A stretch of 64,000 nucleotides of DNA. It comes from Euglena gracilis (taxonomy: Eukaryota). The stretch is from the NCBI GenBank assembly GCA_039621445.1, contig CP154954.1:21588954-21652953 (forward strand), read 5' to 3'. The notes beneath the pieces were generated by a model, which made no database searches, was not told the origin of the DNA, and saw nothing but the letters and a program-made list of their open reading frames with translations. The position numbers and the translations under genes were made by a program. Shown here piece after piece: positions 6,501-58,450 of the stretch; the first letter of the stretch is position 1, and each line of letters opens with the position of its first letter.

Positions 6501-9500
6501 TAAATCTTTGCAAGATAGCCTCACCTTGGACTAAAGGGGGAGGCAAAATATTTGTTACGTGTGACAAAGTAATAAAGCACTAAAACAAATCAAGAAAATA
6601 AATAATAATGAGGATGATAATAAATAAAAATATGTGCCAAATTTTTTCAGAAAAAATTAAGACGGAAAATGTGGGCCGCGACTGCCACGGCATTTATCTT
6701 TTTCTTGCGCCGTGCCAGTATGATCCCCACGCCATGTGCAGGTGGGGGCCGGGCCCTGCCCCCGATCCTCTTCGACGAGCGGATGCTGCAGACACACATG
6801 GAGGCGGACCTGCTGCAGGTGAAGCACACCCTGCGGCAGGTGCTGGTCCGCGCCTCCGGCCTCCATGCCACGGAGGGTGCCCTCGCCCCCGCCCAGGACC
6901 CCTGCCAACCCCCCACCCCAACCTGCGGCAGTGATGGGCGTTTGCGCATGTGTGTCTATGTGTGTCTGTGTGTGGTTTGTTTGCGCGCACGTGCGTGCAT
7001 GTGATTTGTGTGCGCTTCCTAGGCGAGCATTACCCCCTAAAACTGGTGTGTGGGAGCTGGGGCCCACCACCAGGGGAGGGCCAGCCAGCCACCACAGCAG
7101 GGGAGAGCCAGCATATTGTTTTTTTCCTTCAGCCAGCAGCTCCCAGCGGGGTGCACCCCCCCCCCCTTTCAGGTCGAGCGCTGGATTATTTTTTTTTAGC
7201 CATAATCTTGGGGTGAACAACCAAAAAATCCTCGGAAAGGCCCTTGTTTGGCCGCTTAGCTCCTTTTTTCCATAATTTTTTTGGCACTGTCCTACGAATC
7301 CAGCCAGGTCCAACCCGCTCCACCCAGCGCTTTTTTCCAGCCAGTGGGCTGGACCCCCCCCCCCCCTAAGGGGCCCTGAAGAAATTCCGTGTGTGTGGTG
7401 GCAGAAAGCTCCGCTGGAAGAGTTCATGCGAAACCAAGTTCTCTGTGGCTGCCGATCCCTTCCTGAAATGGGGGCATGTGGGCACTGGCGCGCATGCCAG
7501 TAACCCTGCATCCTTTCAAGGCAGGTTAAGAGCAATGCCTTGATGACAATCCAGCGACACCCCGGAAATTGCGGACACACACGGAGGGGGAACGCGGTGG
7601 AGGTTCCAGCCAGTCCCCCCCCCCCCCAATTTCCTTCAGCCCTGGCAGCCTGCCGTCGTCTCCGGGATCCGACTGCCGTGCGCCGGCCGGTGCCACATCT
7701 ACGGCCGGAGCAGCCGCGGCAGCGAGCCCAACGTGTACCAGTTCTACACCGTGGTGCCCTACGCGAACGCCCAGCACTGGGTTTGCTGGGTTGGGGGGGG
7801 CCTCCGCCCAGCCAGTGCCCTCTGCGGTGCGCTGTGGCCACCAACGCGTCTGTTGGTCGCATCGCACAGGTGTCCCCCCCCGGCCTAGTGCTGTCTTTAC
7901 CCATATGGTTCCGAAACCATGCCCCCAACAAGACACTGCCCCAGTGCTGCCATTGTGCTGGTGCGTGGGGTGCCCCTCGAGCTGGAGGCGGATGGCCAGG
8001 GAGGGTCGTCTGCACAGTCTCCCCACCCCAGCCAGAAGCCCAATGGGTTGTGCTCCTCCCCCAGGGAAAGGGAGGGGCTGTCCATGGACTATCATTTCGG
8101 TGGTTTTTGCGGTGGGCCCTTGACGATGGGGGGGGGCAAGCTTCGACACTTGAAATTGCCCAGCACCTCTATGTCCCATTGTTCTCCCGAAACCCCAGAT
8201 TTCAAGGTCAGGCGGTGAAGCTGCCACAGGTCTTCTGAGGCGGATCCAAACACCCAGGTTTCGAATCACCGCATCATATGCCCTGGGCATCATACTTATC
8301 GGCTCCCGACCCACACGATCGGTGCGCCGTCCTTTCCCGATCCTCCCTGGGGCTCCCTCCCCGGCCGCCGATGACGCCCGCACCGCCAAAGTTCACATGG
8401 CGGCCGGCTGCGATGACCCGCAGAGAGGCAGGGCCAAGTGGTGCCCCCCCCCCCCCCAACAGGCGCGCGATGCGCGGGCCATGTTTGTGCGAAAGCAAGC
8501 TTTTGGGTCAGATCGCAGTCAGTTCCCTGGGCTTGCCCTCTGTCAGGGAAGATTTTCAGAAAGGTTGGGGATGTTGACAGGTTGACGATGGGCTGGCCAC
8601 AGGTCACTTGGTTGAACCCCCCCCCCAGGTGTGCGTGGACAGCAGAGAGGAGCCCCCCCCCCCTCCTGGACCGCCAGTGGGACACCAAAAGGACAATTTT
8701 TCTTTCCGGTGCTTTACGGCTGAAATTTTGGGCATTTTTGGCAGAGTTTTGCCCAAAAAGGGCAGAATGGCACTTTTGGTCGATTTTGGAGGACAACATT
8801 TTTTGGCCCGGGGCTGTGTTACAGCCTGAAAAATGTTCACCTGGTGTAGGAGCATTGCATCAGCACGCACCACTGTAGAGGAAGGAGGTCCCCTCCCCCC
8901 CCTCGCTGGACTGGAGGGACTGACCTTCCCCCACTTGCCCTTACCCCCCCCCCCCCTATGTCCAACGACCCCCCCCCCCCAGTCTCTTTGGAGGTTTGGC
9001 CAAACTTCCATTTTTGCCACCTTTTGGACAAAAATTTGCCAGAATTGCCCAAAATTTTCGGTGCAAAGCGCCTGATGGAAAGATTTGCCTTTTGGGGGGA
9101 GGGGGTCAATGGTAAACCCCCACCTAAAAGGAACCCATTTCTTATAGGTGGGTTTCCAAAAAATGGCCTGAGGGGTTTCTTATAGGTGGGGGTTTCTTAT
9201 AGGTGGGTTTCAATGTCCGAAAAATTTTTGAGCCGACAAAAGGCCAAAGGTGGCCAAAAACAGTGAGAAATTTCCTTTTGGCGCCTTTGGCGCCAAAGAA
9301 AAATGGGGGTTTCTTATAGGTAGTTGGGTTCAAAGCTCCCCAGGGGTTTCTTATGGGTGGGGGTTTCTTATAGGTGGGCGTCGGTCCAAAAATCCCCAAA
9401 GGGTTTCTTATAGGTGGGAGTTTCTTATAGAGGGGGGTTTCTTAAAGGTGGGGGGTTTACCTGCCAACTTGCTTTTTTGACTCCTTGTCCAACGACCCCC

Positions 9501-12500
9501 CCCCCCCAGTTGGAGGACAGAGGTTACCGGTCGTTGGAGCCCCGCCAAAGGTGTCAAGAGAGAGGAGGCTGTGAATGTGTACTGCATGTTTGGTGCCATT
9601 GGAATGGTTGCAAACTCCAGGACCAGGGCTCTCTGTGTGGGGTCGCATCATTCCTCTGCTGTTTCAAAACACGCCCATTTGCCTCAAAATGCCCCACTGC
9701 CACCTTCCTCGCAAAATCCCCCATTTTCGCCTGTCCACAGCTGTCCAAGGCCAAAACTGGGGGATGACCCCCGGGGATCATCCCTGGGGGGAGGATGACC
9801 CCCCGGCGCTGGGTCCCAGATGAATGCTTTTTCCTCCTTGGTATTTTTAGGGGTATTTTTAGCCAAAAGAGCCCACCAACTTTACGGTCCAATTTGTCAC
9901 CCCACTTTTGTCTCCTCTGAAGGTGCCACCCCTCAGAATCACACCCGCCCACGTTGACTGAGAGGCTTTGCTTGTTGGCCATCCGCCATGGTCCATAAAC
10001 CATTTCAAATTTCTGGACTCATCAGATCCAGCCACGGTTGTGTTTTTTCCCTCTCTGGAGCAACTGAGAGGCTTACCTTTGTCCCTTTTGGGTGAAAATG
10101 CGACCAACGTGTCCCCCGACAGCCGCGCAGCCCCTTCCCTTGACACGGAGGAGACCGAAGCAAGGTTGGCTCAGCTCGGTCCGGGCGGGAAAAGGTTGGG
10201 AACAACTCCCGTGCGAATTGGCGGAACTCCGGAACGGCCAAACGGCCGGGCTTTTGCAGCAAGGTTTCAGGATCAGACAAGCAGTGCCCCCCCCCAAACC
10301 AAACTGAGGGAGGGTCCAACCACCACCATTGTTGTCTTTCTCTCATCCTCGGTGGGGAAACGCCCGGGGGGGCTCCCTGTCCTCTCCTCCCACCTCCACC
10401 ACCTTCCCCCCCCCCGACCACCACCAGCCCCTGCCCCCGGCCCACTCCCTGCCCAGCCTGAGAGGGGAGGAGAAAGCCACCCTGGCAGGGCGCTGTCCGT
10501 CTTTGACCGGGTAGCGGGGAGTGCCCTTTGGCCCAGCCCCACCTTGATGGGTCGGGACACACCGGCGCCTCCGCGCTATGCCCTATGCACTATGCGGGCC
10601 TGGTGGGCGGGTGTCCGGTGATGGGCAGTCCAAACGCTCAACTTTCCCTCCCCACGTTTGGGTGTGTGGGCAAGGTTCTAAGGCTGCAGAAGTTGATCCC
10701 GCAATGTCCATTTTCCCTCGCCACTTTGAATTTTTGTCCCGTTGTTTTAGCGAAGTGCGCACCCCCCCCCATTGGGGTTTGGGTGATAAGGGCAGGCAGG
10801 GGGGGGGCATTTTCACCCCATGGCTTGAGGCATTCCCCCAGATTTGGTTTCAGGAAGCCTGCTCTGCTGGGGGGGGAACACCCAAAAACATACCCCCCAA
10901 TAATATCCCCCCAAATACCATACAGTCCGAACAAAAATGACGGGACACAAAAATGATAGGAAAACACCCAATTTTTCCAATCATTTTCCCCCGCTTTTTT
11001 TCCCCTGTCATTTTTTTCTCCTCATGCCCTTTTCATTCCCTTTTGGGAGAGCCGCGTTCAGGCGTAATCAAATTTCACTCACAAAAGATGGGGTTTGACA
11101 TATGGTCAATTTTGGGTTTGGTTTTTTTTAAATGAAAAATCACCAAACACACATACACAGACAGAAGACCATTTTGGCTACTTTGGGGTGTTTTGAGTTG
11201 CCCTTTTTGCTGAATATCTTTCCTCATAGGTGGGAAAATTGCCACCAAATTTCTGTGAACGCTGAACTTTCTCATCATTATCCGAAACCGAAATTATCCC
11301 ATCATATTTTCCCCGTCAATTTCTTTCCTGTTGTTTTTTCCCTGTTATTTTTGTTTCCTGTCATTTTTGTCAAGACCGTATGATAGTATATCCCCGTTAC
11401 CTGGGACCAGGCTTGTGCTTAGTCGGGTGCCTACCCCACGGGGGGGGGGGGTGGGGGCTAGGGGCAGGCACCCCATAGCACCCGATCCGACCCCCCCCCG
11501 GGGGGGGGGGTAGGGTTTCGGGGGGTGCCTGCCCCTAGCAGGCACCCCCCTCCGACCCCAGCGCCGAAGGCGCCGGGGGCCCGGAAACGGCCATTTTCAA
11601 TGAAAATTTTCTGGGTCTGGCCCGGACCCCTATCCCCCCCGGGGGGGGGGGTGCCTGCTAGGGGCAGGCACCCTATAGCACCCACCCCCCCTCCCCCCCC
11701 GGTTGGTAAGCACAAGCATGCCTGGGACTTCGGCTGCCCAATGAATACACCCCCCTCCTGGATAAAAGTGAGAAATCAAGCAAGGCGGAAAATATCGATT
11801 TCCCTCCGAAACAGCGTACCCCCCCCAAAAAACCTGGCGGGGTGCCAGGTTATTGGAACCAACTTTTGGCCCTGCCCCAGGTTATTTGGGCCCTTTTTTT
11901 CAGCGTCGTAAAGGAGCTTTGCCTTGCCAAGTTACTGAAACTATTTTTTTTTTGCCTCTCCCCCGCCAAGTTAATCGGCCACTGCCAGGAGCAATAACCC
12001 CTCCAGTTTTTTTGGGGGGGTATTTGACAAGGGCCCCACCCATCCCAGACTTCTCTGTCTTTTTTCCGAGGAATGCCACGCAAGGTTGCTCCCCCCTGAC
12101 CCACTGCTTGAGGCAAAAAGGGCAACCGGCCTTATGCGCCTGTCAGCCGGGAAGAGCGTACAAAACAACGCACCGATGATGGATGATGACCCGGGCGGAC
12201 TTTTGGAAATTCAAACTCAAAAAACCCTTAAATTGCACTTTTTTTTGTTACAAAATTGCTGAGTTATGCACATTTTTACACGTGCACCAACCAATTTCTA
12301 CAGTGCCCTCCCAGCCCCGGACTCTGCCCCGCACAACTGCCGGGAGGCACCGCTGGCCAGCAGCATGAAGGGCCCCACCGTGCTAAAGGCCCGGGCCAGG
12401 TGGTGGCATCCCAAGGTTGGTTGGAAGGTCAGAACACTCCCTCCCCACTCCGCCAGATAGTTTTTTTTTCCATTTCTTGCAATAGGCCGAGAAAATGATG

Positions 12501-12509
12501 TATGTGTAA

Positions 12510-12574
<65 letters not shown>

Positions 12575-12591
12575 TGCATACAACGTGCATA

Positions 12592-12659
<68 letters not shown>

Positions 12660-12889
12660 AAGTATGTCTGTAAGTAAGTAAGTAAGTAAGTAAGTGTGTG
12701 TGTATGTATGTATGTGTGTATGTATGTATGTATGTATGTATGTATGTATGTATGTATGTATGTATGTATGTATGTATGTATGTATGTATGTATGTATGTA
12801 TGTATGTATGTATGTATGTATGTATGCATGTATGCATGTATGTATGTATGTATGTATGTATGTATGTATGTATGTATGTATGTATGTAG

Positions 12890-12920
<31 letters not shown>

Positions 12921-13373
12921 TGTATGTATGTATGTATGTATGTATGTATGTATGTATGTATGTATGTATGTATGTATGTATGTATGTATGTATGTATGTA
13001 TGTATGTATGTATGTATGTATGTATGTATGTGTATATATGTATGTATGTATGCATAATGAGCATGCATGCATGCATGCATGCATGCATGCATGCATGCAT
13101 GCATGTATGTATGTATGTATGTATGTATGTATGTATGTATGTATGTATGTATGTATGTATGTATGTATGTATGTATGTATGTATGTATGTATGTATGTAT
13201 GTATGTATGTATGTATGTATGTATGTATGTATGTATGTATGTATGTATGTATGTATGTATGTATGTATGTATGCATGTATGCATGCATGCATGCATGCAT
13301 GCATGCATGCATGCATGCATGCATGTATGTATGTATGTATGTATGTATGTATGTATGTATGTATGTATGTATG

Positions 13374-13407
<34 letters not shown>

Positions 13408-16400
13408 TGTATGTGTATGTATGTATGTATGTATGTATGTATGTATGTATGTATGTATGTATGTATGTATGTATGTATGTATGCATGTATGCATGCATGC
13501 ATGCATGCATGCATGCATGCATGCATGCATGTATGTATGTATGTATGTATGTATGTATGTATGTATGTATGTATGTATGTATGTATGTATGTATGTATGT
13601 ATGTATGTATGTATGTATGTATGTATGTATGTATGTATGTATGTATGTGTATGTATGTATGTATGTATGTATGTATGTATGTATGTATGTATGTATGTAT
13701 GTATGTATGTATGTATGTATGTATGTATGTATGTATGTATGTATGTATGTATGTATGCATGTGTTGTTTGTTTGTATGTATGTGTTGTTTGTATGTATGT
13801 ACGTATGGGGGATTCTCACGAGGGGGGGCTCGACCCCTACCCGCATCCTGGTGAGGAGGGATGGGTAAGAATGCTGGAGGTTTATGGAAATTGGATGGCC
13901 AGGCGGGGTGTGTGGGGGCCGCTGGCTGACGGGGACGCCCACGCGGACGAAGGAGAAGCCGCCGTGGGCCGGGGCGGGCCGCAGCGCGGAGGAGGGGCTG
14001 GCGGGGGACGGCGTGCTGGACGACGCGGTGGTGGGGCTCTTCGACGGGCACGGGGCGTCTGGGGGGGCCCCGCCAAAGCCCCCCCCTCTGGAGGCTGCAG
14101 CCATAGCGGGACTGCAGAACGAGGCACGCATCCCTGGTCTCTTGTTTTGCGCTCCATGCGGCCCGGTGTGTGCAGCCCGGGCCCCGAGGCCTGTTTGGCG
14201 GTTTCTCTCCATTCATGCGCACAGTCCGCTCCAACCGACTGTGAAATTACTTGAATGGGGGTTTTCCTCGGTTAGGCATTCCCCGGCCCCTCCACCTGGG
14301 ACGGAAGTCGCCGCCTACGCTCGGGACACGATGCTCCACAACCTCGTGACCAGGGTTTGATATAAGGAGGGCGTACATGGTTTAGGTGGGGGTTGTCCCC
14401 CCCCCTCCTGGCCCGCAGGGGGGGTCCGGACCCCCCCCCCCCCACCTGCCAGGGGGGTCCGGACCGACCCTCGGGGGAGGGGTTCCCGGGACCCCCCCCA
14501 AAAGGGTCAATTTTTTCCTCTGGCACTTCGCTCCGAATTTTTTTTTTGCATTTTTGGCACATTTTTGCCCGAAAAAGTGCCCAAAATGGCACTTTTGGTC
14601 GTTTTGGGGGGTCGAAAATTTTCGGTCACCCAGACCGCGCCACTGTTTAGGTGGGGGGTGTGTCCGCTCCCCCCCCCCCCCTCCTGGCCCGCAGGGGTCC
14701 GGACCCCCCCCCCACCTGTCCTTACATCGAACCCTGCTCGTGACCTCCGGCTGCTACCCACCCATGGCCACTGCCAACACCCTTTCGTTGGGGAGTCCTT
14801 TTTGCCATTGTTTATTTAGAACGATAATCTCAAAGCACACGCTGCGTTGTGTTGTTGTTAACTCAGTTGACAGAAACACGGTGTGTATTTTTTGTGGCTT
14901 CATCAGCGCCCCGCCAGTCCTGGAAAGCGAGAAATGGCCTCATCCAGCCCTGGGTGTTTTCTGACTCCTTTCTGACTGGGAGGTAGTGGTCCTCCCTGGT
15001 GAAGGACAGTTTGTCAGGAGCCCCTGCCATGCCATGCCAGGCCGTGCCTCCGATGGACCTGCAGGCCGCCCTGATCGACGCCTTCCGCGTGACGGACAAG
15101 CGGATCCGGGAGTGGGGCCAGGCTGTTGTTCAGGCAGTGTTCCCGTGTGTGATGGGAAAGTCCATATGCAGCTCATCCTGTGCCTTTGCACCTACAAAGC
15201 CATGCATGTCTCTGTCCTCGTATTTTTGGTCTTCTCTTCTCTTCTCTTCTGTTCTCTTCTGCTTCTTTTTTCTGATCTCGTTATTTTTAAAAGAATTCTC
15301 TTGGTCTTGAATCATTTTCTTCTGTCTATGTCTTTTGATCTGCTGGTTTGTTGATTTGTGCTTGATTTTTTTTGTTTCTTGTTTGTGTCTTGTGTTTTGT
15401 TGTCATCGACATATTGGCATGTGCGACATGTTTTTCTTGGTGTGTGTGAAAACAAACACTTCAGCGTGTGAGGGTGTATTTCTATTTTATTTGTATTTCT
15501 ATTTCTATTTTACGCACCCCACCACACCCCAATGCCCCCGGCTACACTCAATGATCCCCCCCCTGCTGTAGGGCCAACCCCAACGCTGCCAACGGTGCCT
15601 CGTTGCACTGGGCCCCTCCCCGACCGGCCGGTGCTGAACGGCGGCCTCGCCGGGTCTCGCTCAACAACGAGCCGGCCCGGGTCGGCACCACCGCCCTGGT
15701 GGCCGTGCTGCGCCGGGGCACGCTGTGGGTCGCCAACGCCGGGGACTCCCGGGCGCTGCTGAGGGGGCCGGGCCCGGCGACAGCGTGGGCGGGGGGGAGG
15801 GGGCTGCGGCCCGCACCTGTGCGGTGCTGTGGGGGGGGGGGGTGAGGTTTGGCACACTTGTGCACCACGCCAGGGTTCGGCATACGGGGGTTTCACGGCT
15901 TCATTTGGGAGGCTTCCTACCCTCCTGGACCGGGCACCTACTGCATTTTTTTTCTCATCACAGCTTCCTCCATCACAGCCCCCCAGCCTTGATCTAGCTC
16001 CATCCACCAAAATGTCGAGAAGGCAAAAATGTGTTAGAAATTTTTGTTTTTTTCATCGACCCAGCCCAGCACAGCCCCCTCCCCTCCAGCCCTGGACCCC
16101 CTCCGGGGGGTCTGGAACCCCGGGGGGGGGGGTCCGGATTCACTCCGGGGGGCCAACCTGGTCCCCCAATAAGGTCAAGTTTTTTTTTTCTTTCCGGTGC
16201 TCTGCGCCGAAAATTTTTGGTCATTTCGACAAAGGTTTGCCAAAAAATTCCAAGATGTCATTTCGGATCTGTTTGGAAACGTTTTTGTCCCGGAGCTTAG
16301 CCCCTGTTTAGATGGGGGTTCCCCTCCTTGAGCAGGGGTCCAACCTCCACCTGCTCAGAAGTTTGTTTCAGCCAAGTTGGTGAATAGGCAGGGTGTTTGG

Positions 16401-19400
16401 CCAGGCCTACTCCCAAGAAGCGCAGGTTGGTGAGTACAGGCACCGAGGCCAACCTCCCAAGTGGGTAGGGCATTCCGGAGGGGGGGGGGGCAGGGCAACC
16501 TGAATCCGGGGGTTCGGTTTGGTGTCAACTGTGTTCGGGACCTCGAAGACATGCTGCATTTGGGTGCCACACGTCCTTGATGCTCCAGCGGCCACCTGTT
16601 TGCGGCCGCTCCCATCCATAGCCAGCTCTACTAAGGTAATCAATTTCCGCTTTGGGAAACTGTGAACTTTTCAGCAAGCTTCTGGGGGAGGGGAAAATGC
16701 GTGGTGCTGTCTGTGGGGTTGACGGAGAGGGGTCACTCGGATCGTTTCCGGGATGCAGCTCAGGTGCAGGGTTCTGGGGGGGAGTTAGGCAGGCCTTGGG
16801 GCTTGCCAGGCCGGGCCCCGGGCCGGTGCACCAGGACTTCACGACGACCCGCCTCGCGGACCTCCACACCCCGACCAACGAGGCGGAGCGGCACCTCGTC
16901 CAGAAGCGGGGCGGCACGGTGACGTTCCGCGAGGGGGCGTGGCGGGTCAACGGCGAGCTGCTGGTGACCCGCCTCCTCGGTGTGCCCCACTGCCATCCGG
17001 GGTTTGTGCCGCCCCCCCTCCCCATGCCCTCCCCTCCCAGATGACTGTCCTCCACAATGTACCCAAACTGTCTCCTGCCTCCATTCTCACCCACTCAGCT
17101 GTCTTCTACCCCTGGCATAATGTCTTGGTCTGATGCGAAAGGTTTTTGTCTAATCTCGGTGATGCAGTTTCCCAATTTAGAACCCCTTTTCCTGGGGGGG
17201 TGCTGCTGGGAGGTTGGTTCGCGAGAGGTTGGGCCACCGTCGGTCGCAGCCCAACCGGGGTCCAACCAATCTGCCAACGTCCGTGGTGGGGAGGATTGGC
17301 AATGGATGCATGAATGAACAAAAGTCGTTTGGAAAAAATTGGCGGAACAAAATCCTGACAAATCTTTTTCTACCATTTTGGCCTAGACTACCCAATTTTT
17401 CCACATGTTTTTCAGAAATTTTTGAAAATTACACCCTATTTTTCAAACATCACTTTCATGTCTTTCAATTGTCAATCATATCAAGAGATTTGCTCAGGTG
17501 GTTTGATTTTCAGTTGTTCGTAATTATCCTTCCTTGCTCAGCGATTTGAATCATGTTGTGAGGTTTCCAATGTGTGGTGTCACATGAAATACACTTTCCT
17601 GTGTAATTTTTTTGGTAGGGGGGGAAGTCTGCCAATTTTTTCCGCACGTTTGTTTTGCACGACATCTTTCCAATACATTTTCCCACAATTTTGGCCGAGA
17701 CCACCACTTGCTTTCGCCTGCAAATTTTTCCATCCAGTTTATTTCGTCAGCACCAACCGTGGTATGCCTTGGGGATCGCTGAGCAATGATACCCTGAGGC
17801 TTACCCTGGAGGGAAGGGGGGGGGGCAGGGTTTTTTTTTTTAGCCTTGGACCCCCTGGGGGGGGGAAGGGGGGTAGGGTGGGTGGGTCTGGCAGAGCCCC
17901 CGGGGTCCCCCCGGGGTCTCCCCCAGGGGATATGCTTTTCAGCGCCAAAGGCGCCTAAAATTTTTGAAAAAGGTGCTATTTTTAGCATTTTTCGCGATTT
18001 TGGCCATTTTCAGGGGAAAGTGAGTGGGTCCCCCGGGAACCCCCCCCCCGGGGGGGGGGCCCCAGGGGTGGGTGGGGGTGGACCCCCCTCCCCCTGGTCT
18101 TAAAAAAAAACCCCTGGGGGGTCCCAAGCACCCTGACATTTTCCTCGGGCAGTGTTCACACTTCAGGTTAAGTGCATTAACTAACTGCATTATAATTAAT
18201 TATAAGTAAAAATATTATGTATATTTTATAGTTTTTATAATATAAAAAGTATAATATATATTGCATATACAGTATTACATATAATATATAATATGCATAT
18301 TATATTACACAGTATATATATACGTATATTAATCATAATTACATTGTATCAGGCAACCATTGGGTTTTCGCCCTCCAAGTTCCTAGTCGCGGCCAACCTC
18401 CGCCCCTGGCGGGTGGTCACCTGCCATCCCCACGTCACCAGCCACAAAATCGACCCCTCCAGACCAGGGATGGAACGGAGTGCATGCCTCCTGAGCTGTA
18501 CCAGCCAAATGAGAGGGGGCATCCAAGTTTGATTCCAGATTTTTCCAAGACCTTTGAATGAAACAGAACTTTGTTGTTGGTATAACAGAACTTTGTTATT
18601 GATAAACGATGGATTTGTTATTGATGTAACAAACGCAGTTTGAATAATTTCAGACCTCTCTTTTTTTGGGAATAACTCTGCAACCCACACACGTGCAGTT
18701 TTGTTTTGCCTTGTCCAGTCGCTGCATACCAACCCCCCCCCCCCCCCGGGAAACTGTCATGCCCGAGAACCTGTCAAGGTCCTGGTACTGGCCAACCTGT
18801 CAGGTGACAGTTTCCCGGGGGGGGGGGGGTGGGGCACCCGCTGTGCCTGTGGGTTGGGCCAGCCCTGCGGCCGGGACTGCTGTGTGCTGCTGGCGGCGGG
18901 CCTCTGGAGTGTGATGACGGAGGCGGACGTGGCGGAGTTCCTGGCGGCCGCCTTCCAGGAGGTGCAGGCGTCGCTGCGGGACCTGCAGCAGCCGAGCCTG
19001 ACCGTGGAGGCTGTCCTGCGGCGCCGCCAGTCCGTCCTGTACCCGGCGTCCCGCCCACTGCTCGGCCTTTTTTCGGCGTCACGTGGCCACATGTGGGCAC
19101 GTGACGTGTAGCCACATGGCCTTATCCCATGGCTACGTGGCTCGTACCTACGCCATGTTATTGGCGTGGCTACGCGCCATGCTAGCCACTCTCTGCGTAG
19201 GCTTGGGCTGGACCAGCCTCACAACCGGCCAGGGTGCCAGTGGGCCACGGGAGTTGCCAGGCCAGGATGCCAACGTTTTTGATTTGTGACAGCAAAAGCG
19301 GTCAACGTCTTGGTCACAGAGAGCCCCGGCGTGGGCTTCCGCGAGCCCCACAGCCCGGCGGTGCCCCGGACTGATGTGCGACGCCCGCACCCCGCCGCTC

Positions 19401-22400
19401 GACCTCGGCCAGCGGCCCCGCACCTGCCCCCCGGGGGCCACCCTGCCCCGAGGGCTGCAGGCGGTTGAGCCCTGATGGATGGGCGGCCCCCGGGCCAGGG
19501 GGGGAACTATTTTCGCCGGTGTGTGCAGCATGGCCTCCCGGACGGCCACAGCATTTAGGGTGGGCTCCTCACCAAGCGGTTTCCTTTTCTTTCCGGCCGC
19601 CATCAGCGACCTCTCCCCCCCCCCGACCACACCATATTGAAGGAAATGGCGATGGGGGATGTGGCTGGGATGGCGTTCCGTCCTCACACAAAGTCATTGA
19701 GATTGGCGCAGCTTGTCAAAACTACCCCCATGTCAAGTCCGCTGCCATGTCGTGGTGTGATTTGAAAATGTGCATTTGTCGAAAATCACATATTCTGCAT
19801 GATGGTTCTTCGGTCTGAATTATTCAAAAGCAGAAAGTCCCAGCCGGAATGAGCAGCACGATGTGGAATGTCCCAAATCGCTGCTGATTGAAGCATGATA
19901 TTATGAAAGTTGGCTCTCAAAATATGGCAGTGAGCATTCTTTGTGACATCACAAGCATGCCATAATTGTTCATTTGCATCAAGACGCACAAAACAGCATG
20001 TACCAGGTTTTTTTTTGAAGGCAGGAAATGGGATAAAAAGAAATAAAGTTTTCGATCTCCAGGTGGTTGGGTTTTGGGGTGGTTCGTATCCCCCTCTGAC
20101 TGTTTCTTTTTTTATATTAATTCTCAAAGATAACCGTTTGCAGTCAAACGGTACAGGCAATTAGGTCTACTGATGCCAACTATCAAGGGCAATTGATTGG
20201 TGGGGGGCGGGCATGTAGGTGAAGCCAATGTTGCCCTGTGAGCTGGACCTGGATGTTCTGTCCCCTGGAAGCCGCTCTGAACTCTGTTTGACAGCCCCCC
20301 CCCCCTGTGTGCACTGTGGCTGTTTGCCCCCCCCCCCCGGGGGACAGGGGCTCTGCCGTTGTTCGGCCGCCGTCCCTTCGTCCCCCTCCCCCCGCCCCCC
20401 CCCCCCGGCCGCCCTCCGGCCCCAACGCTGCCGCCGCAGTGCCCGCCCATGCCGGACCCCCCGGCGTGCCCGGCGCCCCCCGACGCCCCCATGCAGCGCG
20501 TGCGGTCCGACTCCCTCCACGGCCGGCCAGCGGGGCTCTTCCCCAAGGGTCCCCCTCCTGCCCTTCGGCTCTGCTGCCCTGGCCCTCGAGGCCAAATTAG
20601 TTCCTCACTCTCCTAGTCAGGGGGGGGGGCGTTCCAACTTGCACCTCCCCAGTTAGCACCTCCCTGCTGGGCTGCGGACCTCCCCCTGGAGGGGGGGGTC
20701 AGTAGAAATACAGTTGGGCCTGGCTTCGCTGGCTTCGCCTGGGCTGGACTGATAAAGTCTCGTCGCAACTTTGAAAGTTGAAAATGGGCTAAAATGGCCA
20801 AAGTGGCATTTTTTGAAGGTTTTTGAGGTTTTAAAATTTTGGTCCACAAATCCTAACCCAGCTGGAGTCATGCTTTTACTCCCGTTTTTGGGTTCTGGGC
20901 AGGTGACCCCAACACCCGTCTCCCCCCCCCCTTTTCTAGCCATGGGACCCTGCAGGGGTTATTTTTCGCAGATTTCGCAATTTTCTGCAAATTCCGCCAT
21001 TTTCAGCAAATTTTTACAATTTTTCCAAAATTTAATTTTTCTTTTCCTCCTTTGATTCCCTCCTTTCATCCGGCCATTCCTTGAATGTTTCATGTTCCAA
21101 CCCAGGTGCCTTTTTTGTCACTTGGTTGCAAGTTTTCCAAAGTTTGCAAATTTTGGCATTTAGTTTTTAGCATTTTTAAGGTTTTTTTTTAAATTTCTGC
21201 CCAGAAATAATTTCGACTTGACAAATTCCACATAGACATATTCCACATTCTGACCTGAACTTTTCGTCAACTTCTTTTTTTTCCTTTTTGGGGTTTTTCA
21301 GCCAACGAATGCTGTGACGTGGTAAAAAATCATGTGTGTTTTCTGGGGGGGGGTGAGAAAGCAAAGCTTACACTAATGTTGCAAAATGAAAAAAGCCAGA
21401 GGAGGAGGCGAAAGCCCCTCCAGCAGAAATGTGGAACACTCCCAATATCAATTTTTCTTGTTTTCCCCCCAAATTTCCACAAATTTTCCACAATTTCAAA
21501 AGAAATTTTGGACTGCCCCCCTTCTTGAATTGTTGCGACAGCCTTTGGAACAACTGCCTTCTAAAACCGGACCCCCTGGGGGGATCCAGTCACCACTCCC
21601 CCCCCCCCCGGCAGCAACTCAGCAGAGTTCCCACAAAATCTTTCGCATCACCATTCATAAGTGTTGATTTTTATTTTCCTGATCCCACACATTTTGCCAA
21701 TGTGTTATCCCAAGCAGCCATGTGTGTATGGCAGTACGCTCATGGGGTTTCTGATTGCCGTTCAGCCCCCAGGGCGGGCAGGGGTTGGTGAGCTGGGGGG
21801 GGGGGCAGAATGGTGTTCATAATTGGGGGGGCACTGGCACTGAGACAACTTCCCTCAATGGAGGCCAGAGGGGGGGGGCTGAATCACCAACAGGGGTTTT
21901 TTTTTGTCTTAGATCCCCAGGGGGGGGGGTGGTTGGGTCCGGCTGAGCCCCCTCCCCCGGGGGAGGTTCCCCCAGGGGGATACTTTTTGGCGCCGTGCTA
22001 TTTTTAGCATTTTTCGCGATTTTTTGGCCATTTTTGGGAAAAGAGACCCCAGGACCCCACCAGGACCCCCCCAGCGGGTTGGTGGGGGGGGACCCTCCGG
22101 TCTTAAAAAAAAACCTTGTACACCAACTCTGCAAGGTGATGTGAAAGGAGAGCAGTCAGAAGAGGACTGGTGCGATATGCCAGAGCCTCAACGGAAAAAA
22201 AATCCACATTGCACATTTGACCCCAGGGATAGATGGGAAGCCCTTTGGTTTTGAGGTAGGTGGCAGGGGGGGGTCCGGAGCCCCCCCCCTGGGGACTAAG
22301 GTGGTGGGTGGATCCGACCCCCCCCCCCAGATGTTGGGAGGGTCCGGACCCCCCCCTCGGCAGGTTGCAAAAGTAGCAAAGTTTTTTCTTCTGGCGCTAC

Positions 22401-23014
22401 TCACCGAAAAAGGAGCAACAAATGCCCCTTTCCCTCATTTTTGAGCAGTTGCACATTTTTTTTGACATTTTGGTGTTTTCCACACAAAAAGTGTTCAAAA
22501 AATTCAAAAATGTGTATTTTTTGGATTTATTTTCCACGAAGGATCAGGGGTTTTTGACTTCTTTTGGCCTTGTATCCGGACTTTGCGACCGGTTCGCAAA
22601 ACCAAATTTTCCCAGCCTCCTTCAGTTTCGAGGGAGGATGGGGGGGTCCGGACCCTCCCCCCCCCCTCAAGGCTTCCCATTCCTGTTTGACCCCCCCTCC
22701 CCCTGCAAAAGGGTCTGCTTTTCACAACCCCTGTGCATTGTTTGTCATTTGGTTCGCAAGCAAGTGCTTTCAAAAGCCCCCCCACGGGGGGGTTCAACCG
22801 GCTGGCTGGGCCACAGGCCAGAGAGAAGGTACCAGCGGGAGCCTGGTGGATGTCACACGGGTCTCACAGGACCTTCCAGACCCGTGTGAGGTCACACAGG
22901 TCTGGAAGGTCTGGAAGGTCCCGTGTGACCCGTGTGACTTTCCAGACACCCAAAGGTTTTGACCCCACCCCCAGACCTTCCCGTGCAGGCCCCTACGTCC
23001 GACCAGGGCCGACC

Positions 23015-23088
<74 letters not shown>

Positions 23089-25942
23089 GCCGACCACGGG
23101 CAACTATGATTTTCAGGACCCCCGTAGGTGGGGGTTCCGACCAGGGCCGACCAGGGCCGACTTGCATGTGGTTGGCCGGCCGAAGGGGAATAGATGAAGG
23201 AATTCGGCAGCTTTCCCTCTGGGCCGCCCGGGCTTTGCAAGGCACTGGATCACTTTTGTTTGTCTTTGTTCTCCAGCTTTTGCCAATGGCGAAGAATCAT
23301 GCCTCCACACGGACTGTGGCCCAATGGGTCGCTTGGGCGGAGGCAGATGGGATGGTCGGCATTGAAGCGGACAGCAATGATCCAGGTGAGCCAAAGGTAA
23401 CGCTCTTGTTTCTTGTCTGCTTCTCTGTGTAGGCAAAGTTTATTGCACCGTTTGCGCAAGGTCGTATGTACCCACAACAAGCGCTTTGAAGCAGCATTGC
23501 TATGGATATTGCAAAGGAATTGGGCCAGACAGACCATTTTTGGAGAGTGAACTCCAAGAAGGTAAAAAAATTGAAGGATCGTGAAGAATCAATGCCTGCT
23601 CCTGTTTCTCAAAGTCGCTGTGAATTCGGTTTTACAAAACATCATCATTCAGGTGTTATTGTGTGCAAAAAAATACAATTTGGTCAATTTTCCCTCAAGG
23701 TTCAAAGTGCTTTGGAAGCAAAGCCGCTCACAGAGGCTATCGAGACCCCCCAGAAAAGGCTAAAGGGACTCTGGACCATTTTGTTTCCAAAGGAAACAAG
23801 GAGGAGCAATTCAAGAAAGATTTGGTTGTTGCATTCGCTGCCGCAAATATTCCTCTTGAAAAATTAAAACAAAGGACAATGTTGAAAGAACTTTGCTGAG
23901 AAAGTTCTTTGAGTAATATGTCCGACTGAATGGTGAAGAGGTTCACATTCCCCATCCTATCAACCTACGAGGGACCCACGCACCCCATGTAATGACCGAT
24001 GGTATAACATTCATTCTTGCGTGATGTCCTTGTTTGTATGTGTCCACAGGCGTTCATAAGCTCAGGGACATCATGAAAGGTCCTGGTTTATCCAAGGCCA
24101 AAGCCATTTTCCCCTCGCTCATTATGTTTGCATTGTAGGCGATCGTTGACAAGATGGACAACATCTTGGTGAAAACCGTGAAGGGCTCGGACATCAACAC
24201 TGCGAAAGCTCTCCTTGCCTTTTGTCCAACCATGCACGTTTTTTTGACACCCAAACACTCCGGCTCATCACACTGGAAGGACTTTCTGACCTGTGCACCA
24301 AAATGAAATGCATTGTGTCATGGTGCAACGTCAAATTGAAATGATTGGGATATTTTTGACCATGCACGTCAAAGTCGCATTTGCAGACAAGCAGGAATTC
24401 ACCCACGAAGGTGATGTGTGAGCGCGTTCCGCTGGTTAATGCCACAGAGTGGGAACGTTATATCACTCTGCTTTCCCAACAACCTCCACCATCTTCCACA
24501 GCTGGTCACATCAGCTTGTGGATGTCACAAACTTACCATTCCTTTGTTGGTTTGGAATGAAATGTGGGGTGGTTGTGCATCTCTTGCCAAAGTGGGGTCA
24601 GCCATTCTTTTGGAACGTGTGGCAGAATCAGGCTTCTTTTTAAGTCACCTGCCCCCCCCCCCCCCCGGGGGAGGGGGGGTGGGTGGGTGGGTCCGGGCCG
24701 GCCCCCCCCCCCCGGGGGGGGGGGGTCCCGCGCCGGAGGCGCTGGGTATACCTTTGCGAAGCGCCGAAAATTTTTTGAAAATTGCCTTTAACGGGCCCGA
24801 TTTTGGGGGGGTCCCCGGACCCCCCCCCCCCCCCCCGGGGGGCCCCCGCCCCCCCGGGGGGGGGGGGGGGGGGCCCCCCCCCCCCCCCCCGGGGGGCTTT
24901 AAAAAAAAGCCTGGGCAGAATGACCGCTGGTGAGATGGGGTCCATTGTGGTTCCAACATTTGGGTCGTGAGCAACGGTTTGGTTCCGCATCGCTGATTTC
25001 CCCACGCTTGCACCCGTTGCCTTGGCCCATCTGCAGGCCCCACGTTCATCTGCTCAAATAGAGCGATATTTCTCACTGCTCGGTCACACAAAAGGCTGGT
25101 ACGAATGAGGATGCAAATGATTGAATTTTTCGATACCGTCAAAAATTGTTTTTCATACCAGCTTTTTTGCCATTCAAACATCGGATCGTTTGAATATGTC
25201 TGATACGACGCTCACCTCTTTAGCCTTTATTTACATGAACAAGAGCTTGTATGACATCTCTGCGTGAAGAGCCGCACATTGACCTTTGCATTTTTGTTTT
25301 GTGCTCTGATGGCTCAGCTTATGGGGCACTTCCTTTTGATCTTGGCGAGACAATTCAGAAAATCATTGCATCCCTTCACATTTTTTTCTGTGACGGATAC
25401 CCCCACCTATGGCCGACTATTTGCCGACCAGGGCCGACCAGGGCCGACCAGAGCACCAAAATGGGAAGTGACCATAGGTGCCTGTTCCCGTGCCGCCCCA
25501 GCCAACCCCAGCCAGCCCCGCTGCCCCCAGGACCTGAAGGAGCTGAAGGACAGCAGCAAGGACGGCTCCTTCGGCCACAAACCGCCCCTCCTCCCCGTCG
25601 AGCAGCAGTCGGACTACCTCCTCATCGAGGACCCCCTCGTGGTCGCCCACGCGCTGCTGATGGAGGCCGCCGCCCGCTCCTGCGGCGAGAACGTGTCGGT
25701 AGTGCTGCTGTGCTTCGCCGGGGCTCCCAGGCCCCTCCAGAGCTCCAAGTTCAGGAGGGGTTGGTTTGGGCCCAATGTAGGTATGGTTTTCTGGCATGTG
25801 TGTGTGTGTGTGTATGTCTGTTTTCTGTGTCTGTTTATGCGTGGGTGGCTCGGTGGGTGGGTGGGTTCACGTAGCTGTGAGTGTGGGTGTGGGTGTGGGT
25901 GTGCACGTGTTTGCAACAGCGTCCAATGCACTGCCTTGTTGA
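535..25942 (+). CDS. Multi-exon gene (5' end probably outside the window or unresolved): receiver (REC) domain + PP2C/PPM phosphatase-like domain. Exons resolved by eye: 606-688, 1110-1206, 1702-~1825/1877, 2369-~2565, 3277-3312, 3609-3662, 3718-3845, 4118-4266, ~5226-5392, 6765-~6877, 7640-7768, 7955-7993, 8355-8417, 13903-14047, 14276-14347, 14742-14759, 15052-15115, 15654-15764, 16826-16979, ~18387-18461, 18873-19045, 25531-25780, 25920-25942. Others between 8.5-13.9 kb and 19.3-22.2 kb are unresolved.
   Basis: Spliced frame gives the REC motifs [37 protein letters not shown] and the PP2C motifs [66 protein letters not shown]. Frames stay continuous across the predicted junctions. Confidence 0.8.
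554..605 (+). other. Nonconventional mini-intron (52 nt)
   Basis: CAAGGCTCCC (557-566) is the perfect reverse complement of GGGAGCCTTG (591-600); 3+5 geometry; in-frame GAG|ATC. Confidence 0.65.
606..688 (+). CDS. Exon, REC domain: [28 protein letters not shown] (contains the phospho-acceptor Asp motif)
   Basis: LILMD motif; joins in frame CT|G to 1110. Confidence 0.85.
689..1109 (+). other. Nonconventional intron
   Basis: T|GCC-CAGGGC ... GCCCTG-CCAAC|G; removal restores DIHLPGLNG. Confidence 0.85.
1110..1206 (+). CDS. Exon, REC domain: [32 protein letters not shown]
   Basis: Typical P-x-x-x-G-x-E and LT motifs of receiver domains. Confidence 0.85.
1207..1701 (+). other. Nonconventional intron
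   Basis: C|AGC-CAGGCCCC ... GGGTCCTG-CGGGA|G; removal restores LTG-DTHE. Confidence 0.8.
1702..1825 (+). CDS. Exon, end of REC domain: [41 protein letters not shown] (3' boundary is 1825 or 1877)
   Basis: G-M-x-x-x-L-x-K-P motif; in-frame join GGC|GAC. Confidence 0.8.
2369..2565 (+). CDS. Exon: ..[41 protein letters not shown]
   Basis: High GC3 open frame; preceded by GTCCTG+5 nt; followed by GCGTCC (possible GC donor). Confidence 0.7.
3313..3608 (+). other. Nonconventional intron derived from a MITE
   Basis: TIR CAGGCTTCTTTTAAGG / CCTTAAAAGAGGCCTG (15/16); flanks ATGCTGAC / ATGTGGAC (6/8). Confidence 0.75.
3663..3717 (+). other. Nonconventional mini-intron (55 nt)
   Basis: T|GCA-CAGAT ... 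ATCTG-GTGTC|G; phase 0 join. Confidence 0.6.
3846..4117 (+). other. Conventional GT-AG intron
   Basis: GG|GTAGGG ... GGCCAG|C; frame preserved (NFGGALH). Confidence 0.65.
4118..4266 (+). CDS. Exon: [49 protein letters not shown]
   Basis: High GC3; AG acceptor at 4116-4117; C|GCCCAGGG nonconventional donor. Confidence 0.75.
6765..6877 (+). CDS. Exon: [37 protein letters not shown]
   Basis: High GC3; upstream GCCCTG pairs with CAGGGC at 5396. Confidence 0.7.
7640..7768 (+). CDS. Exon: [43 protein letters not shown]
   Basis: Polypyrimidine+CAG acceptor; C|GCCCAGCACTGGG donor stem. Confidence 0.7.
7769..7954 (+). other. Nonconventional intron
   Basis: CAGCACTGGG / CCCAGTGCTG perfect 10-bp stem, 3+5 geometry. 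Confidence 0.65.
7994..8354 (+). other. Nonconventional intron
   Basis: CAGGGAGGGTCG / CGATCCTCCCTG 12-bp stem (one G-U pair). Confidence 0.7.
11408..11720. mobile_element. hAT-like MITE with perfect 8-bp TSD CCTGGGAC
   Basis: TIR CAGGCTTGTGCTTA / TAAGCACAAGCATG; related to 36353-36639 and 57410-57716. Confidence 0.85.
12511..13800. repeat. Compound microsatellite (CAGA)n/(TCTG)n/(TATG)n/(CATG)n, intronic
   Basis: Direct. Confidence 0.95.
13903..14047 (+). CDS. Exon leading into the PP2C motif ..[11 protein letters not shown]
   Basis: GLFDG(H) PP2C motif. Confidence 0.75.
14276..14347 (+). CDS. Exon: [24 protein letters not shown]
   Basis: Helix following DGH in PP2C; in-frame joins on both sides. 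Confidence 0.7.
14348..14741 (+). mobile_element. Nonconventional intron that is an intact TIR element (14351-14736) with a perfect 8-bp TSD CTCGTGAC
   Basis: TIR CAGGGTTTGATATAAGGA / TCCTTACATCGAACCCTG; TSD at 14343-14350 and 14737-14744; removal restores [10 protein letters not shown]. Confidence 0.9.
14760..15051 (+). other. Nonconventional intron (CAT/GTG stem variant)
   Basis: C|ACC-CATGGCC ... GGCCGTG-CCTCC|G; removal restores YP-MDLQ. Confidence 0.7.
15052..15115 (+). CDS. Exon: [21 protein letters not shown]
   Basis: PP2C AL..AF..TD helix. Confidence 0.85.
15116..15653 (+). other. Nonconventional intron
   Basis: CAGGCTGTTGTTCAG pairs with CTGAACGGCGGCCTC; removal restores EW-VSLN. 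Confidence 0.7.
15654..15764 (+). CDS. Exon: [37 protein letters not shown]
   Basis: Canonical PP2C GTT and ANxGDSR motifs. Confidence 0.9.
16826..16979 (+). CDS. Exon: [51 protein letters not shown]
   Basis: PP2C H.P..E.RI..GG..RVNG.L.V.R motif. Confidence 0.9.
18387..18461 (+). CDS. Exon: ..[24 protein letters not shown] (5' boundary uncertain)
   Basis: PP2C V...P.V motif; joins A|GG to 18873. Confidence 0.7.
18462..18872 (+). other. Nonconventional intron containing a nested MITE of a TA-flanked family
   Basis: GAC-CAGGG ... CCCTG-CGGCC|G; removal restores DPSR-DCC. Confidence 0.75.
18873..19045 (+). CDS. Exon: [58 protein letters not shown]
   Basis: Degenerate LASDGLWD motif; CCCTG+5 nt|G acceptor. 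Confidence 0.85.
21891..22118. mobile_element. hAT-like MITE (CAGGG-T-run family; relatives at ~4737-5221, 17826-18116, 38619-38874, 55502-55780)
   Basis: CAGGGGTTTTT ... AAAAACCTTG; flanks ATCACCAA/TACACCAA; shared internal ggtgctatttt..cgcgatttttggccattt. Confidence 0.75.
23286..23990 (+). pseudogene. Decayed hAT (CGGBP1-like) transposase N-terminus with its own GT-AG intron at 23386-23432
   Basis: [33 protein letters not shown] (BED-like zinc finger) and [20 protein letters not shown]; stops and frameshifts follow. Confidence 0.65.
24629..24913. mobile_element. hAT-like MITE nested in the 2.5-kb element, perfect TSD GGCAGAAT
   Basis: TIR CAGGCTTCTTTTTAAG / CTTTAAAAAAAAGCCTG. Confidence 0.9.
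25531..25780 (+). CDS. Exon: [41 protein letters not shown]..
   Basis: PP2C C-terminal A..L...A......(D)N.SV.. motif; CAG acceptor at 25530. Confidence 0.8.
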
Positions 25943-26051
25943 AGAGGGTTCTGCCTCCATCCAGCGATGCCCCACAGGCACCGTGATCCTGCATGACACT
26001 GACCTCCCCCTCCAAGCCAGCAAGGCAAACAGAAAAGGGCGAGCCACACAT

Positions 26052-26512
26052 CATACATCTCTCTAAGGTTTTGCGAACCCCCCCCGGGGGGGGCGGCTGC
26101 AGCCAGCCCCGATTTGGGCCCAGCCCAGCCGCAGCAGCACCCCCCCCCCCCGGGGAGGGGGGTGCTGCTAGCCCTGCTAGCCAGCCCCTTTTTTGGGGGT
26201 CCAGCCCAAAATTTTTCGGCGCAAAGCGCCGAAATTTTTTGGAAAATTGTGTTCAAAAGTGGCCAAAAATGGGGTTTGGGGGGCGTTTGGGGCATTTTTG
26301 GGGGGTTTCAGATGCATCATTTTTTCAAAACTGTGCCTTGCAGGTCATTTTTGGGCATTTTTCCGATTTCAGTCCAGCTCGCCCCGGTTCGGGTCCAGCC
26401 GGGGTCCAGCCCCCCCCCCGGGGGGGGGGCTAGCCAGCCCAAATTTCTAGCCAGCCCAAATTTCTAGCCCTAGCCCAGCAACCCCCCCCCGGGGTCCTTA
26501 AAGAGATGTATG
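26052..26512. mobile_element. hAT-like MITE with perfect TSD CCACACAT
   Basis: TIR CATACATCTCTCTAAGG / CCTTAAAGAGATGTATG (16/17); internal CCAGCC repeats. Confidence 0.9.
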
Positions 26513-26607: not shown

Positions 26608-26822
26608 CAGGGCAGAACGGGAATTGGCCAAACAGCCAGGGTGGTGGGGGGGGGGGTCGACCACCCCCACCACCTCCTGTAACTCCGGGAGCACCAATTG
26701 TCGGCCCCAGAATATTTTCCCGGCGACTTCGGCGCCGGGTGGATTTGTTAAAAAAAATCTGTGAAAATGCTGTGGTGGGTGGGGGGTCGACTCCCCCCAC
26801 CAGGCCTTCCCGTTCTGCCCTG
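26608..26822. mobile_element. hAT-like MITE with perfect TSD ACCGTCCC (longer family member at 43496-44085)
   Basis: Perfect 16-bp TIR CAGGGCAGAACGGGAA. Confidence 0.9.
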
Positions 26823-30958: not shown

Positions 30959-31554
30959 CAGGCTTCTTTTTAAGTCAGAAGACTCCGGAGGGGAGGGGGG
31001 GGGGAGGGTGGTTCCGGGCCGGACCCCCCCCCCCACAGGGGGGGTCCCGCACTGGAGGTGTCGGGTATAACCTTTCGGCGCGAAGCGCCGAAAATTTTTG
31101 AAAATTGCCTTTAACGGGCCCGATTTTGGGGGGGGGCCCCCCCCCGGGGGGGGGGGCCCGCCCACCCTGGGTGGGTGGGGGGGACCCCCCCTCCCCCCCG
31201 GGGGTCTTAAAAAGAAGCCTGCCTGACCAGGCTTCTTTTTAAGTCACCTGACCCCCCCCCCCCCCCGGGGGGGGGGGGGGTGGGTGCCCCCCCCCCCCCC
31301 CCCCCCGGGGGGGTGGGTGGGTGGGTCTGGGCCGGACCCCCCCCCCGGGGGGGGCCCGCCCCGGACCCCCCCCCCCCCCCGGGGGGGTCCCGCGCCGGAG
31401 GCTGGGTATACCTTTTCGGCGCGAAGCGCCGAAAATTTTTGAAAATTGCCTTTAACGGGCCCGATTTTGGGGGGGTCCCCCCCCCCCGGGGGGGGGTCCC
31501 GCGCCACCCTGGGTGGGTGGGGGGGGACCCCCCGGGGGCTTAAAAAGAAGCCTG
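30959..31554. mobile_element. Tandem pair of MITEs (30959-31221, 31228-31554) of the 24629 family, flanked by TSD CCTGATGA
   Basis: Each copy runs CAGGCTTCTTTTTAAG...CTTAAAAAGAAGCCTG. Confidence 0.9.

Positions 31555-35426: not shown

Positions 35427-58450
<23,024 letters not shown>

Follow-up and report, generated by a model that had tools for sequence, protein, structure and literature searches.

In a 64,000-nt stretch of the Euglena gracilis genome (GenBank assembly GCA_039621445.1, contig CP154954.1, positions 21,588,954 to 21,652,953 of the forward strand; hereafter the window, numbered from its first letter), a gene for a kinase/receiver/PP2C protein is interrupted at 14351-14736 by a 386-bp MITE (a miniature inverted-repeat transposable element). 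We consider it highly probable that this non-autonomous MITE entered a coding exon, duplicated 8 bp of its target, and is now removed from the RNA as a nonconventional intron, which restores the reading frame without leaving a scar. The case is built on the anatomy of the element, on its absence from mRNA, and on its agreement with the code that knock-in experiments have defined for euglenid nonconventional introns, 5′-N3CDG-/-CH′GN5-6|R (PMC12501133). The parts of the element and their places in this code are as follows.

14351..14736, forward strand: MITE, 386 bp, 63% G+C, no coding capacity (delimited by inverted repeats, duplication and repeat-family boundaries)
14351..14368, forward strand: left terminal inverted repeat (TIR), CAGGGTTTGATATAAGGA; it opens with the CAG of the splicing code (+4..+6)
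14719..14736, forward strand: right TIR; it closes with the CTG of the code (-8..-6)
14343..14350, forward strand: left copy of the target-site duplication, CTCGTGAC; first 5 nt exonic, last 3 nt the N3 spacer of the intron
14737..14744, forward strand: right copy of the target-site duplication, CTCGTGAC; first 5 nt the N5 spacer of the intron, last 3 nt (GAC) opening a micro-exon
14380..14443, forward strand: left subterminal module with poly-G / TCCGGA / poly-C palindromes, repeated in direct orientation at 14645-14716 (about 79% identity, BLASTN self-hits)
14645..14716, forward strand: right subterminal module, the direct repeat of 14380-14443 (BLASTN self-hits)

A preliminary description of this DNA, made from its letters, had reported an 18-bp TIR with two differences and an identical 8-mer on either side, and we confirmed both. 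Between the TIRs at 14351-14368 and 14719-14736, 16 of 18 positions agree. When the window was searched for them with up to 3 mismatches allowed, these two sites were the only matches (0.05 expected); two or more such matches occurred in none of 100 shuffles. The flanking copies of CTCGTGAC are identical at all 8 positions, and the identity extends by 1 further base to give a 9-mer. This ninth matching base is the first base of the inverted repeat, and the true length of the duplication is therefore 8. The same description had called both TIR differences G-U compatible, which holds for 14358/14729, a G.U wobble on the transcribed strand, but not for 14362/14725, which forms an A.C mismatch. 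No Pfam family was found in the two open reading frames (ORFs) that cross the element (14361-14816 and 14386-14961).

Read and contig depth from a DNA run (X2), mapped on region 13850-17200, served to assess the abundance and the ends of related copies. Summed contig depth, a quantity distinct from copy number, was 730,608-1,475,496 over 14298-14745 compared with 53-145 in unique bins; at roughly 10^4 times the depth of unique DNA, this indicates thousands of copies. Among contigs derived from other copies, 26 diverged exactly at 14351 (flank agreement 0.41) and 10 exactly at 14736 (flank agreement 0.43), from which we concluded that the repeat unit ends at the outermost bases of the inverted repeats. 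The same loose ends were visible in RNA runs, so other copies are transcribed too. With TIRs and a target-site duplication, a short non-coding interior, and many copies that share the same ends but differ in their flanks, 14351-14736 is a MITE.

Absence of the element from mRNA and the splicing code

The part of the host gene that lies in the window is on the forward strand at 606..25986 (stop codon 25984-25986) and encodes residues 375-1158 of the 1158-aa kinase/receiver/PP2C protein in 26 exons of 18-183 nt, separated by 25 introns of 186-5004 nt. Its exon map was obtained by exact-word mapping of a transcriptome protein, P0001 (eukprot:EG_transcript_705, 1158 aa), onto the window (606-25983), followed by refinement of the junctions. 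P0001 was retrieved with the 56-residue exon 16826-16993, to which it is 98% identical, and Pfam assigns to it a kinase, a response-regulator receiver and a PP2C domain; the same exon is matched at 84% by P0002 and at 70% by P0003, which are two relatives. Among the exons themselves, 15654-15758 (E 5.9e-07) and 16826-16993 (E 1e-05) gave PP2C hits, while the short exons near the element (13935-14054, 14276-14347 and 15053-15115), being pieces too small for such a search, gave no Pfam family; P0001 and the two downstream exons with hits are the basis of the PP2C assignment. The number of residues across the insertion site is equal in P0001, P0002 and P0003, and the element thus interrupts conserved coding sequence. 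A search of Joint Genome Institute (JGI) metagenomes for the orthologous locus returned 30 loci, all of them kinase-domain relatives at 23-37% identity and none an orthologue.

To region 13850-17200 we also mapped two raw RNA-seq runs (X21 and X22) and a set of transcript contigs (X15). The RNA joints recorded there, and the exons and introns that they define around the element, are listed here.

14056>14300: RNA joint
14351>15050: RNA joint, seen in 6 reads with 6 starts in X21, in 5 reads with 5 starts in X22, and in one 4068-nt contig of depth 130 in X15
15113>15652: RNA joint
15760>16825: RNA joint
14057..14299, forward strand: preceding nonconventional intron, 243 nt, GT..GG, with a 10-bp terminal stem from +4/-6 (RNA joint 14056>14300)
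14300..14347, forward strand: 48-nt upstream exon whose last letters before the T|G cut are ...CTCGT (RNA joint 14056>14300, X15 contig, P0001)
14348..14741, forward strand: focal intron (intron 16), 394 nt, the element plus 8; 5′-GAC CAG ... CTG CTCGT | G(exon) (code, absence from RNA)
14742..14759, forward strand: micro-exon, 18 nt, between two nonconventional introns (X15 letters 14746-14757; VTSGCYP in P0001; boundaries chosen by the code)
14760..15051, forward strand: following nonconventional intron, 292 nt, with a 7-bp terminal stem, CAT/GTG (RNA)

We found that the X15 contig holds exactly 12 letters, 14746-14757, between the two sides of joint 14351>15050, the upstream side of which was placed at 14351 by the aligner because of the duplication. 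Since the mRNA retains these letters and then skips to 15050, two separate non-GT-AG introns lie on either side of an 18-nt micro-exon. Missing from the mRNA are 394 nt, corresponding to the element and one copy of the duplication, and exon 14300-14347 is joined to micro-exon 14742-14759, a joining that P0001 supports as an independent transcriptome protein. In both the RNA and P0001 the exons read ...MLHNLV / TSGCY / PMDLQAAL..., and RNA depth in unique intron bins was 0 to 0.11. The earlier proposal that the flanking exons carry consecutive coding sequence is therefore backed by X21, X22 and X15 together with P0001. Retention of the element in mRNA, or a silent gene, had been named as an outcome that would speak against an intron; the gene is transcribed, and the element is absent from its mRNA. 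For the preceding intron, a GT-AG reading at 14057-14275 was rejected by the RNA.

The duplication allows the same mRNA to be produced by ten nucleotide-equivalent cuts (CT..TG, TC..GC, CG..CT, GT..TC, TG..CG, GA..GT, AC..TG, CC..GA, CA..AC and AG..CC), none of which gives GT/GC-AG borders. Only 1 of the 11 protein-compatible positions (10 of them nucleotide-equivalent) agrees with the published code, namely 14348-14741 with its T|G cut, and this cut places pyrimidine|purine at both borders, as has been described for nonconventional introns (PMC11282704). A cut at T|G, between positions 5 and 6 of the duplication and with a Y|R boundary, is what the preliminary description had put forward; it is supported as the only one of the ten equivalents to fit the code, and would accordingly be the cut in use. 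Terminal pairing starts at +4/-6 and comprises 11 bp, one A.C mismatch, and then 6 bp. In the predicted RNA fold, both inverted repeats are paired in the minimum free energy structure as well as in the centroid (z = -4.61), and none of 100 shuffles was predicted to fold as well.

The remaining introns of the gene behaved in the same manner. A GT/GC-AG-compatible position was available in 0 of the 25 introns of the host gene, and the full code was found in 15 of them, compared with 37 of 1450 and 94 of 1450 decoy position sets; the position of each intron was picked from 1-11 protein-compatible ones, which entails some selection, and the decoys were given equal choice. This 15/25 share is near the 61.2% reported for E. 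agilis, and most of the remaining 10 introns keep the terminal stem from +4/-6. Border repeats measured 9 nt in the focal intron and 0-5 nt in the other 24. The non-GT/GC-AG borders, the fit to the code, the predicted terminal pairing, and the absence from mRNA with the frame kept support the identification of the focal intron as a euglenid nonconventional intron.

Origin and age of the intron, and alternative explanations

In the mechanism that we propose, a MITE with CAG...CTG ends would have inserted into the kinase/receiver/PP2C coding exon, duplicating its 8-bp target; a hAT-like transposase may have mobilised it. The gene would be transcribed through the element, and the inverted repeats would pair in the RNA, presumably also in vivo, so as to juxtapose the two copies of the duplication. 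Nonconventional splicing would then read N3-CAG ... CTG-N5|R, cutting 3 nt before CAG and 5 nt after CTG. Because 3 and 5 nt add up to the 8 bp of the duplication, the element would leave together with exactly one duplication copy, and the frame that existed before the insertion would be restored. The sole extra requirement placed on the target would be a purine at position 6 of the duplication, which here is G, and, given the symmetry of the termini, either orientation should work. Nonconventional introns have been reported to be excised as full-length circular RNA after the conventional introns (Guminska et al., via PMC11282704), and the focal intron might be released in the same form; no back-joint indicating a circular intron was among the joints listed by our mapping, which was aimed at linear joints.

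The preliminary description had called this intron apparently young, which proved correct in a relative sense. The duplication is perfect and the focal copy matches abundant family members at 95% or more, both of which favour youth. At 14725, the focal copy has C where the family majority has T (722663.5 of 740170.3 depth in X2, and 10 of 10 RNA reads in X21). A contig from X2, 14710-15419, crosses the right junction and is the sole contig there (depth 76.2); the 8 letters by which it is distinguished from the window are all listed outside the element, and it so shares both the C at 14725 and the insertion. Since these are common to the two sources, the insertion predates the split of two haplotypes or strains, and this counts against a very recent origin. 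"Young" can thus be used only in relative terms: the gene's other introns are older, but the insertion is not brand new.

Several points weigh against the proposal that the MITE became an intron at this site. The RNA and the DNA do not come from one clone, and an empty-site allele or strain would yield identical mRNA; the mapping gave no statement either way on the joined form in the DNA runs, and the left junction is not among the joints listed for X2. No pre-mRNA read over an element/exon junction was identified, RNA depth in the intron being about 0 outside the repeat, and the duplication makes the exact cut unreadable from RNA. The abundance of the family is expressed as summed contig depth, which does not equal copy number. 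The window is, furthermore, without a transposase or an autonomous element, and of its 150 ORFs searched against Pfam, 1 had any hit, to PP2C.

The first of these points leads directly to an explanation in terms of presence/absence polymorphism, according to which the spliced-looking mRNA would come from empty-site alleles or strains, and the allele with the element would be unspliced or null. Loss of the element and one copy of the duplication is indistinguishable from an empty site, and the RNA (X21, X22, X15) and the DNA (X2, window) are different samples. The strains would seem to differ at exonic position 15088, where C and T both occur in RNA (T in 5 of 7 reads in X21 and in 2 of 6 reads in X22) and only C occurs in X2 DNA, as in the window; the two letters reflect differing alleles or strains, or possibly editing. 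Against this stands the presence of the insertion in both DNA sources (window and X2), and in X2 a single contig of single-locus depth runs unbroken from the flank into the element, which, judging by the behaviour of contigs at branch points, speaks against a second, empty allele in that sample. Reads that also extend over the joint region are few, and both letters at 15088 occur among them. In addition, the code to which the element conforms is sufficient for splicing at a foreign site (PMC12501133), and the gene's other 24 introns are spliced out according to that rule as well. We therefore regard a polymorphism as improbable, and think it likely that the cells that produced the RNA carried the insertion.

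An ordinary, old nonconventional intron could in principle carry an 8-nt direct repeat by chance together with a long stem, and would then owe nothing to a transposon. Short direct repeats border 84.4% of euglenid introns (PMC12501133), and terminal pairing is general to nonconventional introns. The border repeat of the focal intron is nevertheless 8-9 nt long, well outside the range found in the other 24 introns of the gene, and its interior belongs to a high-copy repeat; the outermost bases of the stem are exactly where copies of that repeat stop. Five other elements in the window also have perfect 8-bp flanks, compared with none in 5 Markov shuffles, and we judge a chance origin of the repeat and stem to be very unlikely.

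A different reading would place the element inside a pre-existing GT-AG intron at 14346-15040, in which case the duplication merely copied a 5′ splice site and no intron was created. CTC|GTGACC...CAG|GCC would indeed form an in-frame GT-AG intron, but the mRNA holds 14746-14757, which such an intron would delete, and the acceptor in use is at 15050-15052 and not at 15041. TSGCY is present in P0001, and the gene has no GT-AG-compatible intron. RNA mapping thus refuted this reading, which we find scarcely credible. Finally, high-copy repeats are prone to misassembly, but misplacement of a repeat into the gene is barely conceivable here, since the independent X2 contig 14710-15419 links the right end of the element to the same flank.

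Other elements and repeats in the window

Our ungapped scan for inverted repeats with duplications was initially swamped by a (TGTA/TGCA)n tetranucleotide array at about 12300-13830, which is approximately 1.5 kb long, has (CAGA)n-like edges, and lies inside intron 14 (12394-13933). A complexity-filtered scan loses T-rich inverted repeats, and an outer-boundary filter loses the focal element because its duplication is partly self-complementary; counts were kept per scan and were not pooled. Perfect 8-mer matches among 849 pairs numbered 9 for adjacent flanks and 7 for an outward-displaced control, nearly all of them microsatellite or homopolymer, so that this raw tally does not discriminate. 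The evidence used here is instead the list of complex cases together with the Markov shuffles: five further elements that have CA(G/T) ends and are flanked by perfect 8-bp duplications were found in the window, and none in 5 shuffles. These elements, and a related intron of the host gene, are given below.

22224-22685: element, 462 bp, flank TTTGACCC, gapped inverted repeat CAGGGATAGATGGGAAGCC / CAGGAATGGGAAGCC; found by eye and not by the scan
24629-24913: element, 285 bp, flank GGCAGAAT, inverted repeat CAGGCTTCTTTTTA
26052-26512: element, flank CCACACAT; 66 bp past the stop codon, possibly in the 3′ untranslated region (UTR)
26608-26822: element, flank ACCGTCCC; 622 bp past the stop codon, possibly in the 3′ UTR
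30959-31554: element, 596 bp, flank CCTGATGA, inverted repeat CAGGCTTCTTTTTA
3313-3608: intron 5, with a MITE at 3316-3603, inverted repeat CAGGCTTCTTTTAA and a 16-bp stem; flanks ATGCTGAC / ATGTGGAC match at 6 of 8 positions

The element at 22224-22685 lies inside the 5-kb intron 24 and shares the poly-G/TCCGGA/poly-C modules with the focal element. The preliminary description had pointed out that internal motifs of the GGGGTCCGGACCCC type recur in this area, and we located them at 22267-22289, 22336-22356 and 22640-22665, all inside this separate element. The 596-bp element at 30959-31554 resembles an internal duplication of the 285-bp element at 24629-24913. The MITE in intron 5 has the inverted-repeat type of these same two elements (24629 and 30959), and both changes in its flanks fall in the portion that became intronic after insertion; intron 5 seems to represent an earlier instance of this element-to-intron process.

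The inverted-repeat families represented by 14351-14368, 24629-24644 and 26052-26068 have different interiors and share the motif ...T(A/C/T)T(A/C/T)TAAG(G), situated about 10-17 nt from the CA-start. From this shared motif one might suspect a single transposase that mobilises several families.

Three further repeats were noted. A relative of the element at 26608-26822 is located at 43496-44085, with flanks that match at 6 of 8 positions. Another very high-copy repeat occupies 15941-16082 in intron 19, where X2 depth was 0.35-1.09 million and copies ended at 15941/15954 and 16018/16082. A long, near-perfect inverted repeat is formed by 59581-59989 and 61335-61654, whose arms extend over several hundred bases and are separated by about 1.3 kb; it showed up as a ladder of nested perfect 14-mers.

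Comparison with known introns and transposons

Introners, reportedly described by Huff et al. in 2016 and by Gozashti et al. in 2022, are said to be transposon families that create spliceosomal introns in Micromonas, Aureococcus, dinoflagellates and others. The focal element resembles them in being a multi-copy DNA transposon, bounded by inverted repeats and a target duplication, whose insertion into an exon is removed from the RNA so that the gene survives. Introners differ in relying on GT-AG borders and the spliceosome, with one splice site carried by the element or co-opted, whereas the focal element allows no GT-AG; its signals are the inverted-repeat termini and the length of the duplication, read by the nonconventional pathway. 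Neither the element nor its duplication supplies the GT/GC-AG borders by which a spliceosomal introner is recognised, and its function is introner-like by another route.

Among DNA transposons, an 8-bp target-site duplication combined with inverted repeats of 5-27 bp is the pattern of hAT elements (PMC3517528). In common with the hAT MITEs known as Mar in Drosophila (PMC3517528), the focal element has an 8-bp duplication, short inverted repeats that start with CAG, a non-coding interior and a high copy number. It differs in its 63% G+C content with poly-G/poly-C palindromes, in contrast to an AT-rich interior, and no hAT transposase was found in the window. Judged by duplication length and inverted-repeat shape, the element would be classed as hAT-like. 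Among the papers listed by a literature search on hAT elements in Euglena, none mentions Euglena, and the review PMC11282704 nowhere uses "8 bp", "8-bp" or "hAT".

The closest comparison is with the euglenid nonconventional introns, which make up 71.8% of the introns in E. agilis (PMC12501133). As reported for these introns (Nomura et al. 2025, PMC12501133; Milanowski et al. 2014, PMC3935182; review PMC11282704), the focal intron has non-GT-AG borders, CAG at +4..+6, CTG at -8..-6, spacers of 3 and 5 nt, a downstream exon that begins with a purine, pyrimidine|purine borders, a terminal stem, direct repeats at its borders, and no trace in the mRNA. It differs from them in that its interior is an intact, very-high-copy repeat and its border repeat is a full and perfect 8-bp target-site duplication. 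The pairing of CAG with CTG and the "TSD-like" border repeats of nonconventional introns were already known. An origin from MITEs was proposed in 2013 (PMC3935182) and repeated in 2024-2025 (PMC11282704, PMC12501133), and in 2025 the origins of these introns were still said to "remain unclear" (PMC12501133). The literature searched yielded no named transposon family that acts as such an intron, nor the equation of 3 + 5 with the length of the duplication.

To this hypothesis the locus adds what had been lacking: a high-copy family, one copy of which sits in a conserved coding exon and retains its 8-bp duplication intact, and RNA that shows the exact absence of the element plus one duplication copy; moreover, the length of the duplication accounts for the 3- and 5-nt spacers found by experiment. 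Whether all euglenid nonconventional introns, to which most introns of Euglena belong, descend from CAG...CTG-ended, 8-bp-duplicating (hAT-like) transposons is a question on which we see the chances as evenly balanced; the splicing code would in that event be a reading of transposon anatomy, made up of the inverted-repeat termini and an offset of 3 + 5 = 8 nt, and the pathway would have arisen, or would persist, as RNA-level repair of insertions. If this is true, the process is still running, and insertions with a purine at duplication position 6 become scarless introns in either orientation. The host gene would then display an age series, from the fresh copy in intron 16, through the decayed intron 5 with its flanks matching at 6 of 8 positions, to 23 introns that have only the code or the terminal stem. 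Set beside these known systems, the locus is not a new kind of system; it is a clean example of the published, unproven hypothesis that euglenid nonconventional introns originate from MITEs.

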